Origin: Candidatus Heimdallarchaeum aukensis | GTDB taxonomy: Archaea > Asgardarchaeota > Heimdallarchaeia > Heimdallarchaeales > Heimdallarchaeaceae | Direction: 5' to 3' | Length of the DNA stretch: 64,000 bases | NCBI GenBank assembly: GCA_021513695.1 | Contig: CP084166.1 | Coordinates: 672,001 to 736,000 of the forward strand | Shown: positions 3,440 through 26,354 of the stretch, in pieces | Layout: each line of letters starts with the position of its first letter | Numbering within the stretch: the stretch's first letter is position 1 | Made by a program: the position numbers and the translations under genes | Notes under the pieces: model-generated | Seen by the model: only the letters and a program-made list of their open reading frames with translations | The model's database searches: none | Told to the model about the DNA's origin: nothing

Positions 3440-4678
3440 ATGAAAATGAGTCCATTTGAGATAAAGATTGATGAGGAGAAAAAGAAATTAGTGAAAGAGC
3501 TAATAAAGAAATTGCACCAAGGAGAAAATATACAAGAAGTGAGAAAGCAGTTTAAAGAAGTATTAAGAGATATGAATGCTTTAGAGATCACACAAGTAGA
3601 ACAGGAATTAATTAAAGAGGGAATGGATCCAAGAGAGATTTTTTCTATGTGTGACATACATTTAGAAGTGTTTAAAGAAAACCTAAGTACAAATTTGGAT
3701 TTAGCTCCACCAGGACATCCTATTCATACGTTAATGCATGAGCATGTAAAACTAGTCGAATTTGGAGAAAAGTTGTTCCAAACGACCAAGGATTTAAGAA
3801 AAGTGAAAGATTTTCCTTTTGCAGGAAACATTTTAGGAGCTATTCAAGATATTGTTAACCATTTTAAAGAAGCAGAAAAGCATTACTTAAGAGAAGAGAA
3901 TATTCTATTTCCATACTTGGAAAAACACGGAATTACGCAACCACCCAAGATTATGTGGATGGATCATGATCGTATTAGAGAATTAAAGAAGGAGATTTTT
4001 GAACTAGTAGAAGGACGAAAAATAACGGACTATTCTGAGTTTGTTGATAGACTTGAAAAGGCAAGTTTAGCATTAGCTGAATACCAAAGTGGTCATTTTG
4101 AGAAAGAAAACAAAATTCTATTTCCAACTGCTATGAAAGTTATTTCTGAAGAGGAATGGAAAGATATAACAAAGGAATTTAATGACATTGGTTATTGCTG
4201 TTTCTCACCTAAAGAAGCTGTTGAAGCAGTAGAAGAAGAACAAACTCAAAAAGCTACACTCGACTCAGGAATAATCGAATTTGAAACTGGAAAAATAGAT
4301 GTTAAAACATTAGAAGCAGTCCTAGATACACTTCCTTTTGATATCACGTTTGTTGATAAAAATGATAGAGTAGCCTATTATAGTAATTCTAGCGAGAGAC
4401 TGTTTGTTAGAACTAAAGCTATTATTGGAAGAACAGTGCAAAATTGCCATCCTAATAAAAGCATTCATATAGTAAACAAAATCATCAATGATTTTCGTGA
4501 AGGAAAGAAAGACAAGGCTGAATTTTGGTTCAGATTAGGAGACAAATACGTTTACATTCGCTACTATGCAGTTAGAAGTAGAGAAGGAGAATATTTAGGA
4601 ACTTTAGAAGTCAGCCAAGATATAGCACAAATAAAACAAATCGAAGGTGATAAGAAGCTTTTAGATTGGGAAGATTAA
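3440..4678 (+). CDS. DUF438/hemerythrin-like domain protein with C-terminal PAS domain
   Basis: HPIHTLMHEH and later His/Glu-containing helices resemble hemerythrin-like cation-binding motifs. The C-terminal approx 110 aa (ITFVDKNDRVAYYSNSSERLF...) look like a PAS fold. Confidence 0.55.
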   Translation: MKMSPFEIKIDEEKKKLVKELIKKLHQGENIQEVRKQFKEVLRDMNALEITQVEQELIKEGMDPREIFSMCDIHLEVFKENLSTNLDLAPPGHPIHTLMHEHVKLVEFGEKLFQTTKDLRKVKDFPFAGNILGAIQDIVNHFKEAEKHYLREENILFPYLEKHGITQPPKIMWMDHDRIRELKKEIFELVEGRKITDYSEFVDRLEKASLALAEYQSGHFEKENKILFPTAMKVISEEEWKDITKEFNDIGYCCFSPKEAVEAVEEEQTQKATLDSGIIEFETGKIDVKTLEAVLDTLPFDITFVDKNDRVAYYSNSSERLFVRTKAIIGRTVQNCHPNKSIHIVNKIINDFREGKKDKAEFWFRLGDKYVYIRYYAVRSREGEYLGTLEVSQDIAQIKQIEGDKKLLDWED

Positions 4679-4952: not shown

Positions 4953-5870
4953 TTGAGATTTCCTTGTGAATATGTTACTTCTGAATTTTTACCTGGTTTA
5001 AGGATCAGAGTCAGTCATTTGTTACGTGAAGCAGGATATTCTCAAAATGAAATTGCTGAAAAACTCGGTGTTAAGCAACCTGTTGTAGTAAGTTATCTTA
5101 AAGCATATGAAAAGAGAATTATAAAAGAAAAAGAGGACAATTTTCATTTGGATAACTTAGCTAACGAAATAACTAATGCTATTTTGGAGGGTAAATCTAC
5201 AGCTTTTTTGATTCGAACAGTTTGTACTCGATGTAAGTCTTTAAGAGTAGATAGTTTCATCTGCACTCAACACAAAAAACTTATTCCAGAGTTAAGTAAC
5301 ATAAAAAACTGCGACTTGTGTATGGGCTTTCCAGATAAAATGCCTACAATAGAAGAACGTAAACATATTAAAGATGAAATGATTGAGATGTTCAATTTAC
5401 TTACTTCGTATAAAGAATTCATTAATTGGATACCTGAAATTGGTGGACAAATTGCTCATTGTGATGATAAAGCTCTAGAATTAGATGATGTTGCCAGTTT
5501 TCCAGGAAGAATAGTGAAAGTTAAAAACGAAATTCGAAGATTAAGTGACCCTGAATTCGGTGAATCAAAAACAATGGCTCATTTATTAATCTGGGTTAGA
5601 AAATTTCAATCTAATATTAAGTGGATTTTAAGCATTAAAAACAAACCTGTTCTTCAAAAGAAACTGAAAAATCTAAATTTACCTATTTTAGAAACTCAAG
5701 AAATTGACACAAAATGGAAAAAAACTTTAGACAAACTTTCAAAAAATCCAGATATTTTCCAGTTTAGATTTTTGTTAGATAGTGGCGGAAAAGGATATGA
5801 GCCTATCACATATATCTTTGCAGAAAACAAAAACGAACTTGAAGAACTTTTGAAAAAAGTTTTTGCTTAA
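4953..5870 (+). CDS. HTH-domain protein, possibly ThiN-type regulator
   Basis: N-terminal SQNEIAEKLGVKQPVVVSYL helix-turn-helix. The C-terminal half contains IPEIGGQIAHC, reminiscent of the ThiN domain. Weak. Confidence 0.35.
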   Translation: MRFPCEYVTSEFLPGLRIRVSHLLREAGYSQNEIAEKLGVKQPVVVSYLKAYEKRIIKEKEDNFHLDNLANEITNAILEGKSTAFLIRTVCTRCKSLRVDSFICTQHKKLIPELSNIKNCDLCMGFPDKMPTIEERKHIKDEMIEMFNLLTSYKEFINWIPEIGGQIAHCDDKALELDDVASFPGRIVKVKNEIRRLSDPEFGESKTMAHLLIWVRKFQSNIKWILSIKNKPVLQKKLKNLNLPILETQEIDTKWKKTLDKLSKNPDIFQFRFLLDSGGKGYEPITYIFAENKNELEELLKKVFA

Positions 5871-22126: not shown

Positions 22127-22371
22127 ATGGAAAATATTATCGAAGCAAAGGATATTACAAAAACTTACAACGGAAAAACAATTCTGAATAAACTTTCATT
22201 TCAAGTCAAAAAAGGAGAATTATTCACATTAATTGGCCATAACGGTGCAGGAAAAACAACTCTTTTCAAGATTCTTACAGGACAAATTAAACAAGATAGT
22301 GGTACAGCAAGAATCTTTGATACTAATGTTGAATCGCAATTAAAGAGTAAGTATAAATTACGTATCAGCTA
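22127..22371 (+). pseudogene. ABC transporter ATP-binding protein, N-terminal fragment (disrupted by IS insertion)
   Basis: Walker A GHNGAGKTT and Q-loop region up to KLRISY. The remainder of the ORF (DLLFYVKFFALCLAREKTKGSLIS) is not ABC-like and reads into the inserted element. Confidence 0.7.
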
Positions 22372-22640
22372 TGATTTACTTTTTTACGTAAAGTTTTTCG
22401 CACTCTGTCTTGCAAGAGAGAAAACTAAAGGAAGTTTAATCTCTTGAACTCAACCAAGCCATACAATGCCATGAAGGGGTTGAGACAGACATCATACACG
22501 AAACGTGGGAATCATAAAGAAGAATAGAAAGTTTTTCTTTCTTTTCTTCACTCCACGAGAGACAAAAAAAAGAATTACTCCTATAATAGAGAAGGAGTTA
22601 CTTTCCTTTTTGTCTACTGGGACTGCAACCAATGGCTGAG
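22372..22640 (-). ncRNA. putative omega-RNA (reRNA) region at the right end of the TnpB element
   Basis: In IS200/IS605 TnpB elements the guide RNA overlaps the 3' end of tnpB and the right end. The region is GC-richer and structured-looking. No direct evidence of transcription. Confidence 0.25.
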
Positions 22641-24062
22641 CCCTCGGCAAACAGTGAAATGGGAAGAACTGAACCTTTGACCAGTGAGGTAATCAGTGAT
22701 AGTTGTTCCTCGAGGACGAAAAAGATCTCCAAGGAACTTACGAGCGATATTCATTGCTCCTGTGAGGTCAGAGTGGAAAGTGTAATTGCAAGAGGAGCAA
22801 TGAACTAAACCTCTTACTGGACGGATAACTTTCCTTCCACAACGAGCACAGTGAGAAGATGTCCCTCTTTCATTCATTGTTAATATTCGGTGAGGTTCAA
22901 AACCTCGAAGTATCAATGCCCGACGGAGAAGAGCAAGAATAAGAGAAAAGTTCCACCGATGAAGTTTCCTGCGAAACTTACGAGTACTTTTACCTTTTCC
23001 TTTCTCCTCACGAACATGTTTAGGATAACCTACAACGACGAAAAGGTCATATATTCGCGCATAAGTCTCTATCGTCTGCACGATGTCGCTTACAAATTGG
23101 TAAATATAGGCTCGTTTAACGTTTCTATATCTTCTTCGGAGGAGACTAAGAAAACGATAAACTTGGTGTTTTTTACCCGACTGGTCATTTAAAGCCGCTT
23201 TCCTCTGAAGACGGGAAAGTTTGAGTTTATATCGATGATTGACTCTATTCCACTGTTTGGTATACCAGAACTTTATCTCTTTGTTTGTTAATTTCTTTTT
23301 AGGGGTCAGTAACACTCCTGTAGCAGGAATGTTTATCCCTATATCTATTCCCAGCACAGCTGGGGGAAGAGAAGAAGAACTTTTTTCTTCAGGAGGATAA
23401 AAAGAAGAAGGAAGAACTTTTAATTGGAAATACACCCACCACTCACGTGTAGAACGTTTATATCTTAGTTCTAGACTTTTTATTCTTCCTTTCTTTAACT
23501 CCTTCTGGTGGAAATCACTCATCTCTAAAGGTAACCATATTTTCTGATGATAAGGGGTGTTTCTTTTCCACGTATCTAACGAGTCTCTTATCCCCACCCA
23601 CCAACGAGTGAGAGTGTTATTCTTCTCTTTTGGTAGATGAACGAGAATGAACCTCTTTGCATTAATTAGTTGTTTTCTAGCTCTCTTTATTGGAGGACGA
23701 GTATTGTTAGGCCTATACCCTTGTTCATATAGTTGCACGCCTATATCTCTACATTCTTGGAATTCATTGTGAGAACAATAAAGGAACATTTTCTTAAGAT
23801 CGTGAGGAACAGTCTTTCTTCTCTCTTCTTCTTTAACTTTTGAAGTAGTTAGCGTCAGTTCATCTAGTTTTCCTCTATGTACTCTTATTTTCCCTCTCTT
23901 AGTTTTAGTACATATTTTTCCTCTGTTATGATGTATTATTCTCACATACTTCTCTATTATCCTCGTGTCTCTCCCCGTTATTCTCCTTAACTTTTCCTTC
24001 TTCCTCGTCGTCAATACCTCATTCTTTATTCTCACTTTCAAGGTTTTGACGACGTCCTCCAT
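22614..24062 (-). CDS. tnpB: TnpB (OrfB) RNA-guided endonuclease-like transposase-associated protein
   Basis: 482 aa. RuvC-I LGIDIGI, C-terminal zinc finger CARCGRK...CSSCNY, and RuvC-III HSDLTGAMNIARKF. Basic N-terminus. Confidence 0.85.
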   Translation of the reverse strand: MEDVVKTLKVRIKNEVLTTRKKEKLRRITGRDTRIIEKYVRIIHHNRGKICTKTKRGKIRVHRGKLDELTLTTSKVKEEERRKTVPHDLKKMFLYCSHNEFQECRDIGVQLYEQGYRPNNTRPPIKRARKQLINAKRFILVHLPKEKNNTLTRWWVGIRDSLDTWKRNTPYHQKIWLPLEMSDFHQKELKKGRIKSLELRYKRSTREWWVYFQLKVLPSSFYPPEEKSSSSLPPAVLGIDIGINIPATGVLLTPKKKLTNKEIKFWYTKQWNRVNHRYKLKLSRLQRKAALNDQSGKKHQVYRFLSLLRRRYRNVKRAYIYQFVSDIVQTIETYARIYDLFVVVGYPKHVREEKGKGKSTRKFRRKLHRWNFSLILALLRRALILRGFEPHRILTMNERGTSSHCARCGRKVIRPVRGLVHCSSCNYTFHSDLTGAMNIARKFLGDLFRPRGTTITDYLTGQRFSSSHFTVCRGLSHWLQSQ

Positions 24063-24215
24063 CTTTCTCTTTTCTCCTTCTTTCCTCTTTTTTTGTTTCT
24101 TCTTCTCTTTTTTATTCTACTTTTTTTCCCTATAAAAACCCCTCCCCTTCTTCTCTTCCCTTTTTTCTCTCTACATCTTCCTCAACAATTATAAATTACG
24201 CAAAAAATAGACGCA

Positions 24216-24951
24216 TGTTCCACAAGCAGATCTTCTTTGGGATAATCTAACTATAAAAGAAAACATCTCTCTAATGGGTAATCTTTATGGATTAAAGAAA
24301 GCACAAATTGAAGAAAAAGCAAACAAATTTCTTACTGATTTTAATTTGGTTGAACATCAAAAAAAACTTGCTGATAAACTGTCTGGAGGTATGAAAAAGA
24401 AATTATCAATTGCTATGTCTTTGATGAATGATCCATTACTTCTATTTTTAGATGAACCAACTACAGGACTTGATGTTGAAGCAAGAACTTTGTTAATTGA
24501 AGATTTGAAAAGGCTGAAAGAAGAAGGAATAACCATTATTCTTACTACCCATTTAATGGAAGTAGCAGAATCACTAGCGTCAAAAGTTTTAATCATCGAC
24601 AAAGGACAAGTAGTTGCATTTGGAACAGTAGAGAATATAATTAATGAATCTATAGGTGATAAAATCCTCCAAGTAGGATTAATCAAAAGAAATAATGAAT
24701 TTGAAGATTTTATTGAAAAAGAAATCAAACATTCAAAAGAAGTCGATTATATTCAAATCAAACAAACATTTTTCTTCAAGGGAGAAAAGTTACCAGAACT
24801 TATACAAGTAATTTCTTCTTCTGAATTTATTAAAGACATCTATGAAATTAACATTAAAAAAAGTTCTCTAAAGGAAGCTTTTCTCTTTATTACTCATAAA
24901 ATTTACAAGAATGGGAATAACTTTAATTCTTTACTGGAGGTTCAAAAATGA
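24216..24951 (+). pseudogene. ABC transporter ATP-binding protein, C-terminal fragment (same gene as 22127-22371)
   Basis: Reading upstream of the annotated Met stays in frame as THVPQADLLWDNLTIKENISLMGNLYGL. ABC signature LSGGMKKKL, Walker B LLFLDEPTTGLD, H-loop TTHLM. Confidence 0.7.
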
Positions 24952-26354
24952 TCTTATACCTTACTCTTATTCGAATAAAACAGATAATCAGAGAAAAGGA
25001 ATTTTACTTTTATGTAATAGTTTTTCCATTATTCTTCTTAATTCTATTTGGTTTTCTTAGTTCAAGCTGGGTACAAACAACAACAACTATTCCTATTGGA
25101 TACATTTCTGAAGATTTAGGAATTAGTGATGATATCCTTAACGAAACAATAATGTTTGATGAAGCATTCTACAATTTCTTGAACAAACACCACTTAGAAA
25201 ATAATATCAAAACTTTCGAGATACATAATTATACAGAAGTAAATTCTTTGGAAAATGATATCAACAATAGAATTATCGATGGAGGAATAGTAATTCCTTT
25301 CGATTTTTCAGAACAAATGCTTAACATATCAAGGTTTTACAGTTCTCTTATTCTAGTTAATTTCCTTGGGAGTCAATTTAATACTTATGCTTCAGAATCT
25401 GCTAATATTTCTGCAGCTATTAACTCTCTTTCATCTCATCTTCAAGGAACAGCTAATTTATCTTTACTTTTCTATGGTGATATAACAATCGACACAGCTA
25501 TGACTTCTTATTCTGTTCTTTGGCAAGTGATAAACGACTATGTTCAAAACACAACTCTTTCTTACACTGAAAAGATTTGGAAGGTTATTAAGAATGAATT
25601 CGATCTATCTTTCAATTTCTCTTCTACAAGTAATGATTCTTCGCAAAACTCTATAACCTATAGTATTATCGTAGTTGATTCTGGAACAGGAGAATTAGTT
25701 ACCAACTTCAGAAAAGAATATATTTCCAATATCCTTCCAGGTCAAATTATACAAAGCATCCTAATGTCTTCAATCTCTGTAATATGGTTGACTGAAATGG
25801 AAGAACGAAAAGAAATTTTAAAACGATTAAAATTGACTAAACTTACTGCTGGAGGATATATAGGAAGTATAATTCTCGCATGGGGAACTATTGCTTTACT
25901 TCAAGGTTTATTTTTGATTACTGTTTCTGCTGTGCTTGGATTCTTCAGTTTTTCTGTTGGTCCATTAGCTTGGTTGATGACTATTTTGACCTTAGTTTTT
26001 CTAGGTTTCATTACTGCAACTATTTCTTTACTTGTGACAAGTTTCATTAAACCTCGAACGGCAACTCCAATATTAGTTCTTTCTAGTACTGTTCTGGCTA
26101 TGTTTGTAGGAGAATATTTCTTTCAAGTTAAACCTGCTTTTACTTTTGCAAAGAAAAACTTTACTTGGTTAGACATATTTCCTGTTCGACCAGCTTTCCT
26201 TGTTATGAAGAATGCTCTATTATTAGGAAAAAATGGAGACATCACTATTTTGCTTTTTGACTTTGCTCTTGTTGTTTTATGGACAATTTTAATATTTGCC
26301 ATAAGTAGTTTCGCTTTTAGCAAACTAAAACTCAAATATATAGAAAAAGAATGA
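24948..26354 (+). CDS. ABC-2 type transporter permease with large extracytoplasmic domain
   Basis: N-terminal TM, approx 250-aa non-membrane region, then 5-6 C-terminal TM helices. Overlaps the ATPase stop by 4 nt. Confidence 0.55.
   Translation: MILYLTLIRIKQIIREKEFYFYVIVFPLFFLILFGFLSSSWVQTTTTIPIGYISEDLGISDDILNETIMFDEAFYNFLNKHHLENNIKTFEIHNYTEVNSLENDINNRIIDGGIVIPFDFSEQMLNISRFYSSLILVNFLGSQFNTYASESANISAAINSLSSHLQGTANLSLLFYGDITIDTAMTSYSVLWQVINDYVQNTTLSYTEKIWKVIKNEFDLSFNFSSTSNDSSQNSITYSIIVVDSGTGELVTNFRKEYISNILPGQIIQSILMSSISVIWLTEMEERKEILKRLKLTKLTAGGYIGSIILAWGTIALLQGLFLITVSAVLGFFSFSVGPLAWLMTILTLVFLGFITATISLLVTSFIKPRTATPILVLSSTVLAMFVGEYFFQVKPAFTFAKKNFTWLDIFPVRPAFLVMKNALLLGKNGDITILLFDFALVVLWTILIFAISSFAFSKLKLKYIEKE

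Follow-up and report, generated by a model that had tools for sequence, protein, structure and literature searches.

A non-autonomous TnpB insertion sequence of a multi-copy Heimdallarchaeum family interrupts an ABC transporter ATPase gene

Findings

The window analyzed here, a stretch of 64,000 nucleotides from Candidatus Heimdallarchaeum aukensis (contig CP084166.1, positions 672,001 to 736,000), contains the ATPase gene of an ATP-binding cassette (ABC) transporter of the ABC-2 type that is split between codons 82 and 83 by an element inserted in antisense orientation, and the transporter is thereby inactivated. The intruder is a non-autonomous insertion sequence (IS) of a multi-copy Heimdallarchaeum family, made up of tnpB and a putative downstream RNA scaffold only. 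It belongs to a known class, the TnpB/omega-RNA insertion sequences, though its ends are built as in no textbook family. Gene disruption in itself is routine. Archaeal TnpBs are numerous and seldom caught moving, and the clean pair of a filled and an empty site described below shows that a solo TnpB element has moved recently within the Heimdallarchaeia, a lineage close to eukaryotes. To the explanation as a whole, comprising the insertion, the nuclease, its guide RNA and movement by dinucleotide exchange, we assign a probability of about 0.7.

The interrupted gene and its partner occupy the following positions of the window.

22127 to 22372, plus strand: 5' fragment of the ABC-2-type transporter ATPase gene, codons 1-82 (Pfam ABC_tran positions 1-63, E = 1.3e-14)
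24217 to 24951, plus strand: 3' fragment of the same gene, codons 83-326 (Pfam ABC_tran positions 81-137)
24948 to 26354, plus strand: partner ABC-2 permease gene, intact (PF12698, E = 5.9e-18)

The 5' fragment, which extends from M1 to KLRISY82 and ends with the Tyr82 codon at 22370-22372, carries the Walker A motif GHNGAGKT; past the junction its frame runs into the element and reaches a stop at 22447, giving a 106-residue peptide with Walker A as its only motif. The 3' fragment restarts in frame at 24217 with VPQADLLWDNLT..., carries the signature LSGGMKKK and the Walker B motif LLFLDEP, is without a promoter and begins at an internal Met at 24274. Joining 22127-22372 to 24217-24951 in silico yields a clean open reading frame (ORF) of 981 nt and 326 amino acids, and only once the insert is removed in this way are Walker A, signature and Walker B present in one polypeptide next to the ABC-2 permease. 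A protein search with the reconstructed sequence retrieved, at full coverage, an intact orthologue of 326 amino acids from Ca. Heimdallarchaeum endolithica PR6 (protein P0091, locus L013, 3001-3981), with 87% protein identity and 88.8% DNA identity, to which both fragments are collinear (codons 1-82 and 83-326). The neighborhood is shared as well, since in both genomes one finds a 281-residue gene, a leucine-rich-repeat protein, an 83-residue gene on the opposite strand, the ATPase and a 468-residue ABC-2 permease. The uninterrupted PR6 site, in which ...attacgtatcagctat is followed directly by gttccacaagcag..., is identical to the joined flanks of the window; therefore, the insert is exactly 1844 bp long (22373-24216) or, equivalently, the element spans 22373-24214 (1842 bp) with AT on either side.

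A sequence-only reading of this locus had proposed that a TnpB-only element splits the ATPase gene at this point and that the two halves were once contiguous, and the uninterrupted PR6 orthologue, set against the 1844-bp insert, bears out both proposals. The site of the frame break, after KLRISY, was also placed correctly, except that the Tyr codon ends at 22372 and not at 22371; the "Met at 24216" from which the second half had been thought to extend upstream is an out-of-frame ATG. The same reading held that the permease was intact and the inactivation fresh, and here too the data agree. The inactivation is evolutionarily recent, because the gene bears no other lesion: the PR6 site is empty, neither half of the ATPase gene has a further lesion, and its ratio of nonsynonymous to synonymous substitution rates (dN/dS) relative to PR6, 0.19, is comparable with the 0.12 of the permease. 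The latter has the same length as in PR6 (468 amino acids), its start overlaps the ATPase stop codon, and the element cuts it off from the upstream promoter region.

Multi-copy repeats are the kind of sequence that confuses assemblers, and a repeat misplaced inside the gene might in principle mimic such a disruption. We regard this as extremely improbable. The junctions coincide to the base with the conserved termini of the family and rejoin to an in-frame gene, and an independent metagenome contig from the Joint Genome Institute (L014) starts within the element and passes into the C-terminal ATPase fragment at the same left-end junction; the second assembly therefore excludes an artefact for all practical purposes.

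Fifteen differences, 8 of them synonymous and 7 nonsynonymous, separate the window from L014 within the 735-nt C-terminal fragment of the ATPase gene; the neighboring permease gene has only 2 in 1407 nt, and the left end 1 in 162 nt. This divergent patch (24259-24832 in the window, 205-778 in L014) begins 43 nt from the junction of an insertion that is common to both, and its derived states, judged against PR6, are split between the two lineages. The pattern suggests a tract imported by recombination and not the decay of a pseudogene.

Within and around the insert the following features are recognized.

22351 to 22370, minus strand: predicted omega-RNA guide, 5'-AGCUGAUACGUAAUUUAUAC-3' (flank read through from the right end)
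22371 to 22372, no strand: AT dinucleotide at the right-end junction, part of the Tyr82 codon (AT after ...AAATC in 17 of 17 copies)
22373 to 22403, minus strand: right-end terminal inverted repeat, on the plus strand GATTTACTTTTTTACGTAAAGTTTTTCGCAC (homology with the PR6 copies ends here; aligns in inverted orientation with the left end)
22373 to 22618, minus strand: structured non-coding RNA scaffold downstream of tnpB, putative omega-RNA or right-end-element RNA (reRNA) (folding and covariation)
22614 to 24062, minus strand: tnpB, 482 amino acids, intact (PF07282, E = 1.2e-8; NCBIfam guided_TnpB, 77.5 bits)
24063 to 24214, minus strand: left end (alignment of the left ends of both subfamilies)
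24215 to 24216, no strand: AT dinucleotide at the left-end junction (AT in the left junctions of 16 copies, then G, or A in L008)
24217 to 24220, minus strand: predicted flank on the side of the target-adjacent motif (TAM), reading ..GAAC directly 5' of AT on the minus strand (conservation at positions -1 and -2)

The family to which the element belongs was delineated by a scan of reference genomes, which revealed at least 12 loci in PR6, 11 of them full-length, situated at different places among housekeeping genes. The window element aligns to these copies with 79.6-91.9% identity, and the alignment limits fall within 3 nt of both gene breaks, so the ends of the element are defined independently of the ABC gene, a service that had been anticipated from a search for other copies. 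Cluster look-ups added further copies from Ca. H. aukensis and from several metagenome-assembled genomes (MAGs) of Heimdallarchaeaceae, and the named homologues, down to 31% identity, all come from Heimdall- or Thorarchaeota, save one fragment labeled Aenigmatarchaeota. Searches of the rest of the window with the insert (blastn and tblastn) found no second copy. In a metagenome scan with the terminal-repeat pattern, chance matches dominate, and among the matches listed only L087 and L092 are real copies; searches of viral contigs with the terminal repeat, the circle junction and the TnpB profile returned chance or very distant matches only.

Two subfamilies, A and B, are distinguished by their ends. 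One PR6 copy (L002, 3318853-3326307) is chimeric, with an A-type left end joined to a B-type right end and RNA region, which suggests recombination between the subfamilies. The B-type PR6 copies L007, L008, L010 and L011 have a truncated or frameshifted tnpB, and the A-type copies, including that of the window, are mostly intact; the A subfamily thus seems to have been active more recently.

The insert has 38.2% GC and the remainder of the window 30.4%; nowhere else in the window does GC reach so high a value, and the GC content at third codon positions (GC3) of tnpB is 35%, compared with 20-24% in host genes. The contrast had been noticed in the sequence-only reading and is real; its interpretation as a recent horizontal arrival, from a donor of higher GC, is quite improbable. 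GC amounts to 35-39% in the window copy and in its 11 full-length PR6 counterparts, in flanks of 28-32%, each measured copy standing some 6-9 GC points above its own surroundings, and a similar offset is found in relatives with 42% and 37% identity from other Heimdall genomes. Members of the family occur in both H. endolithica and H. aukensis as well as in several MAGs of Heimdallarchaeaceae, and the identity of the PR6 copies to the window copy, 79-92%, is about that of the host genes themselves to PR6 (89-90%). Given that all measured copies have the offset, high GC is a stable trait of a resident multi-copy family and is uninformative on when the window copy arrived; it probably reflects an Arg/Lys-rich protein (R+K = 22%) and a structured RNA. 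The GC offset of a transposon should accordingly be read with caution and not be taken for a sign of recent horizontal transfer.

The only coding content of the insert is, as proposed from the sequence, the opposite-strand TnpB of 482 amino acids; tnpB is its sole long ORF, and the product carries a Cas12f1-like TNB domain. The score against the NCBIfam guided_TnpB model lies under the model's 100-bit cutoff. A profile search reached Cas12f and TnpB structures in the PDB at E = 6e-20, and an AlphaFold2 model based on 40 homologues, with a mean predicted local distance difference test (pLDDT) score of 82.6, matched Cas12f, ISFba1 TnpB, ISDra2 TnpB and the mimivirus Fanzor2 (9b0l) with probability 1.00. 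RuvC motifs and a zinc finger had been recognized in this protein. The zinc finger (C405/C408/C422/C425) is present, as are the RuvC-I aspartate D240 (in G-I-D-I-G) and the RuvC-III aspartate D432, but the canonical RuvC-II glutamate is absent; its position corresponds to Gly345/Tyr346 in the window copy and is non-acidic in all aligned homologues. An alternative RuvC-II glutamate, E398, lies six residues ahead of the first CxxC. With D240, E398 and D432 invariant among the 40 aligned homologues, the enzyme looks catalytically intact.

TnpBs with an alternative glutamate have been defined by the expression D{P}G-x(120,160)-E-x6-CxxC-x(12,18)-CxxC-x(4,8)-D (Yoon et al., PMC10711439), which is matched by the window TnpB and by 37 of the 40 family members, and the same Glu-to-Gly rearrangement occurs in the "RIIr" branches of Altae-Tran et al., some of them archaea-specific (PMC10691335). 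Judging by these residues, the protein is of the RuvC-II-rearranged (alternative-Glu) type, a known variant. Identity as a Fanzor or pro-Fanzor was considered and rejected, as RuvC-I reads D-I-G and the DPG form of the expression is matched by none of the 40 family members.

Downstream of tnpB, about 245 nt separate the stop codon from the right end, and in this region conserved blocks alternate with variable hairpins. Its folding, which had been suggested as a check for an omega-RNA, gave a minimum free energy of -79.5 kcal/mol for the window copy, compared with -53.7 ± 4.2 for shuffled sequences (z = -6.2). Between the two subfamilies, changes in the hairpin stems compensate one another. RNAalifold, applied to 14 copies, predicts 61 pairs, 7 of which have changes on both sides; 98.6% of cells are paired in the predicted structure, compared with 44-57% when the partners are slid by 1-3 columns, and the number of double-change cells is 38, compared with 0-8 in the slid controls. 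The support that covariation lends to an RNA scaffold is good but not overwhelming. Furthermore, GUGGAGU and ACUUUAC form a long-range helix at a distance of some 20 nt from the right end, which recalls the distal pairing required by published TnpB RNAs (PMC10711439). Rfam has no family over the whole window at gathering thresholds and none over the insert at E-values up to 10. No tRNAs were found in the window, and a scan for bacterial promoters and terminators, signals that are not relevant to archaea, showed no enrichment over shuffled sequences. On the basis of these features, the structured 3' region is a putative omega-RNA scaffold.

Conservation among the 14 copies ends at ...AAAAAGUAAAUC-AU, beyond which each copy differs, as expected if the guide is derived from the flank. 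By analogy with characterized systems, the predicted guide of the window copy would read from 22370 down to 22351, in a register that is uncertain by up to 3 nt, because in IS607-type systems the first flank nucleotide is part of the scaffold. At the opposite end, the TAM side is predicted as ..AAC-AT. Position -1 of this flank is C in 15 of the 16 copies compared (the window copy WIN, L001-L011, L092, L154, L156 and L157), and position -2 is a purine in all nine A-type and C in all seven B-type left ends. This split between subfamilies may indicate a TAM specificity that co-evolves with the nuclease; it could equally reflect the transposase. The expectation that an empty site would define both guide and TAM-side flank was thus realized, with the PR6 site and its single AT as the reference.

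Element ends and mobilization

Read in the orientation of tnpB, all copies show a left flank ..C-AT-G(C/A)TT... and a right end ...GTAAATC-AT-G/A followed by the flank. At the left-end junctions of the 16 copies AT is followed by G everywhere, except for A in L008. At the right end AT is present in 17 of 17 copies and is followed by G in 14 of them, in genomes of which G makes up roughly 15%. The empty site of PR6 has AT only once, and the element itself runs from G to C between two ATs. Its ends are inverted repeats of each other. In subfamily B, CATGATTTACTTTTTGCGTAATTTTGCGAAC faces CATGATTTACTTTTTGTGAAGTTTGTCGAAC, with the first 16 nt identical and similarity extending over about 35 nt, and the A-type ends are likewise inverted repeats; the inverted pairs follow the terminus pattern CATG(A/C)TTTACTTTTT(T)RCG. 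Each end contains tandem motifs of about 10 bp that resemble TTTT(T)RCG, and a joined circle would contain a near-perfect palindrome centered on AT. Stems of 4-5 bp are possible at the two ends, in different registers and with loops that are complementary, not alike.

In the left end, the terminal inverted repeat occupies 24187-24214. It is joined by a purine-rich tract and by a conserved TTTTTATAG box at 24130-24138 which, about 70 nt upstream of the tnpB ATG, is likely an archaeal TATA box. The purine-rich GA/GGA tract (24140-24186 in the window, minus strand) differs in length from copy to copy and is the main reason why elements range from 1789 to 1873 bp. A relative from another Heimdall MAG (L015), whose TnpB is 42% identical, has CATG, about 5 nt and then a 22-nt inverted repeat of two tandem motifs; its ends (3925-3955 and 5655-5690) carry the inverted repeat TTTTCCCCACTTTTNCCA, unrelated to the ends of the window family, next to the same C-AT-G. 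The shared plan with unrelated end sequences implies that the combination of CATG with tandem-motif inverted repeats predates the Heimdallarchaeum family.

A number of other sequence features at the junctions were considered. An 11-nt direct repeat, TATAAATTACG, found in the host at 22352 and in the left end at 24189, was rejected as a target duplication or mimicry, since a deletion between the repeats would give a stop codon and the ancestral states, represented by the PR6 host and the consensus left end, share only 8 nt. A direct repeat of 13/14 nt, AAGTATAAATTACG and AATTATAAATTACG (22349-22362 and 24187-24200), links the host sequence left of the insertion to the inside of the left end; it is probably a matter of chance, sharpened by two window-specific substitutions, because the PR6 host and the left ends of other copies share only 8 nt. 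Insertion at start codons, where AT+G would form an ATG, applies to only 1 of 17 copies and was rejected. In that copy (L010, 4687-5478), the AT+G of the right junction is the start codon of a 264-residue ORF in the orientation of tnpB, and the element lies between the gene and its promoter. An IStron or intron-like insertion was rejected too, the element being antisense to the ABC gene and without an Rfam intron or ribozyme match at E-values up to 10.

The sequence-only reading had assigned the element to the IS200/IS605 type, and it is on this point that the ends lead elsewhere. Elements of that family have no inverted repeats, carry like-oriented hairpins on one strand and select their target only by a motif of 4-5 nt on the 5' side. 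The window family has terminal inverted repeats instead of same-strand hairpins, and its right flank is constrained to AT and, mostly, G, whereas the right-flank nucleotide of IS200/IS605 elements is variable (PMC10711439). IS607 elements recombine at matching dinucleotides, which results in a fixed right flank (PMC10711439, PMC6188088). In the family described here, too, one dinucleotide is shared by the two ends and the target, where it stands singly, and nothing longer is duplicated; it is AT and not GG.

We favor, with somewhat better than even confidence, a serine-type dinucleotide exchange at AT in the manner of IS607, because the ends are inverted repeats, AT is invariant at the junctions and single in the empty site, and the target is a palindromic C-AT-G/A; this weight and those given to the other mechanisms combine published partner frequencies with the anatomy of the ends. 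One alternative is a canonical IS200/IS605 element of the IS1341 group, moved in single-stranded form by a Y1 HUH TnpA that is provided in trans and inserted 3' of ..CAT. TnpB-only copies are indeed classed in that group, Y1 is the commonest partner of TnpB (PMC10691335), no duplication exceeds 2 bp, and the left flank ..CAT together with the element end ..TCAT resembles the paired cleavage motifs of IS608-type elements. We nevertheless consider a Y1 mechanism unlikely, as the ends are similar in inverted and not in direct orientation, with stems out of register and complementary loops that one strand-specific enzyme could not read at both ends; the base 3' of the insertion is G in 14 of 17 copies where a variable right flank is expected (PMC10711439), and no locus examined has a Y1 gene. 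A DDE transposase supplied in trans would instead make a 2-bp staggered cut at C-AT-G and leave the flanking ATs as a target-site duplication. This would accommodate inverted repeats that reach the very tips, a palindromic 4-bp target and the repetition of 2 bp; IS630, with TA in CTAG, offers a comparison, but no IS family is known to us to make a duplication of AT. Inverted terminal repeats have been reported for all DDE-associated TnpB groups (PMC10691335), yet DDE partners of TnpB are rare, none of the loci examined contains a DDE gene, and AT is invariant in the 17 right ends and in every left end compared, so that we view this mechanism with the same reserve as Y1. To a mechanism other than serine, DDE or Y1 we give only a slight chance.

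Several observations weigh against the explanation that we prefer. The window element has no transposase gene of any class in cis, and the same is true of the 12 PR6 copies, of 4 additional copies and of 6 distant relatives. When 46 ORFs of the window and 52 ORFs from the surroundings of other copies were swept with Pfam, the best 25 families included no transposase, and no Y1, serine-recombinase or DDE gene is found in any locus examined. The mobilization step is accordingly read from the anatomy of ends and target. The ends of IS607 elements have been described as terminating in GG and as not being inverted repeats (PMC6188088), and in one survey inverted terminal repeats surround TnpB only in the company of DDE partners (PMC10691335). 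As to the RNA, the compensatory changes lie mostly between just two subfamilies and represent few independent events.

If the element moves by serine-type exchange, a transposase supplied in trans would carry it to new sites as double-stranded DNA, with strand exchange at the AT dinucleotide as in IS607 at GG. The excised circle would be double-stranded, with the junction ...AAAAAGTAAATC-AT-G(C/A)TT...; among the loci examined, this circle-junction sequence had one match, by chance, in an unrelated GC-rich contig. Transcription of tnpB would start from the TTTTTATAG box, and the RNA, transcribed with the tnpB mRNA or alone, would run through the right end into the flank, so that the transcript or its processed 3' part would consist of scaffold and guide, the last 16-20 nt or so (AGCUGAUACGUAAUUUAUAC) matching the ABC gene. 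By analogy with the TnpBs of ISDra2 and ISXfa1, TnpB with this RNA might then recognize ..(A/G)C-AT in the left flank as TAM and cut an uninterrupted ABC allele, either after excision or on an incoming chromosome, whereupon the element would be copied back by homologous repair, a form of homing or retention.

A broader interpretation, which we put forward as a tentative and less probable one, is that these elements constitute an unrecognized family of Asgard transposons characterized by a solo TnpB/omega-RNA module, inverted repeats of tandem motifs, insertion at the AT of CATG and an unlinked, possibly new, recombinase. Roughly two dozen loci could be inspected among those of about 90 homologues, and none has a linked transposase. 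In such a family the base at position -2, purine or C, would represent a co-evolving TAM and target specificity and, at the extreme, the rearranged-RuvC TnpB might itself contribute to mobility.

Implications and relation to known systems

The anatomy of the ends indicates that "TnpB-only" need not mean movement in the manner of IS200/IS605, and it suggests that these genomes harbor a transposase partner. For a TnpB of the alternative-Glu type, the locus also supplies a concrete predicted guide and the motif on its TAM side, of possible use in nuclease prospecting.

Compared with the IS1341 group and the ISDra2 module, the window element has the same layout of a single tnpB followed by a putative structured 3' RNA that extends to the right end and a guide that would come from the flank; here too, each genome holds several copies, and these lack a transposase in cis. 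It differs from the IS1341 group in its inverted repeats, the fixed AT and G of its right flank, the palindromic target and the rearranged RuvC-II. The protein resembles the RuvC-II-rearranged TnpBs ("RIIr", Altae-Tran 2023; the "Ealt, D-Phi-G" clade, Yoon 2023), which likewise have Gly instead of the canonical Glu, D-I-G in RuvC-I and a Glu that precedes the first CxxC by six residues. Fanzors and pro-Fanzors share the alternative-Glu active site, and the fold matches that of the mimivirus Fanzor2, but DPG is diagnostic of them and the window family has D-I-G.

As in the IS607 family (IS607, IS1535, ISXfa1), the same dinucleotide is found at the ends and in the target without a larger duplication, short direct-repeat motifs lie inside the ends, and the right-flank nucleotide is fixed; the published alternative-Glu TnpBs of the pro-Fanzor kind are also linked to IS607. 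Unlike those elements, which have GG and unrelated termini, the present family has AT and symmetric inverted repeats, and no serine recombinase in the loci examined. The DDE-associated TnpB transposons (IS630-linked "DDE-6") resemble it in their symmetric inverted repeats and in having an RNA region no more than 250 bp away from the end; they differ in that their dinucleotide is TA and not AT and that no DDE or helix-turn-helix (HTH) gene accompanies the element here. The best reading of these comparisons is that the window family is IS607-like, with AT in place of GG, except for its symmetric termini, a symmetry that a 2-bp duplication of the DDE kind would also fit.

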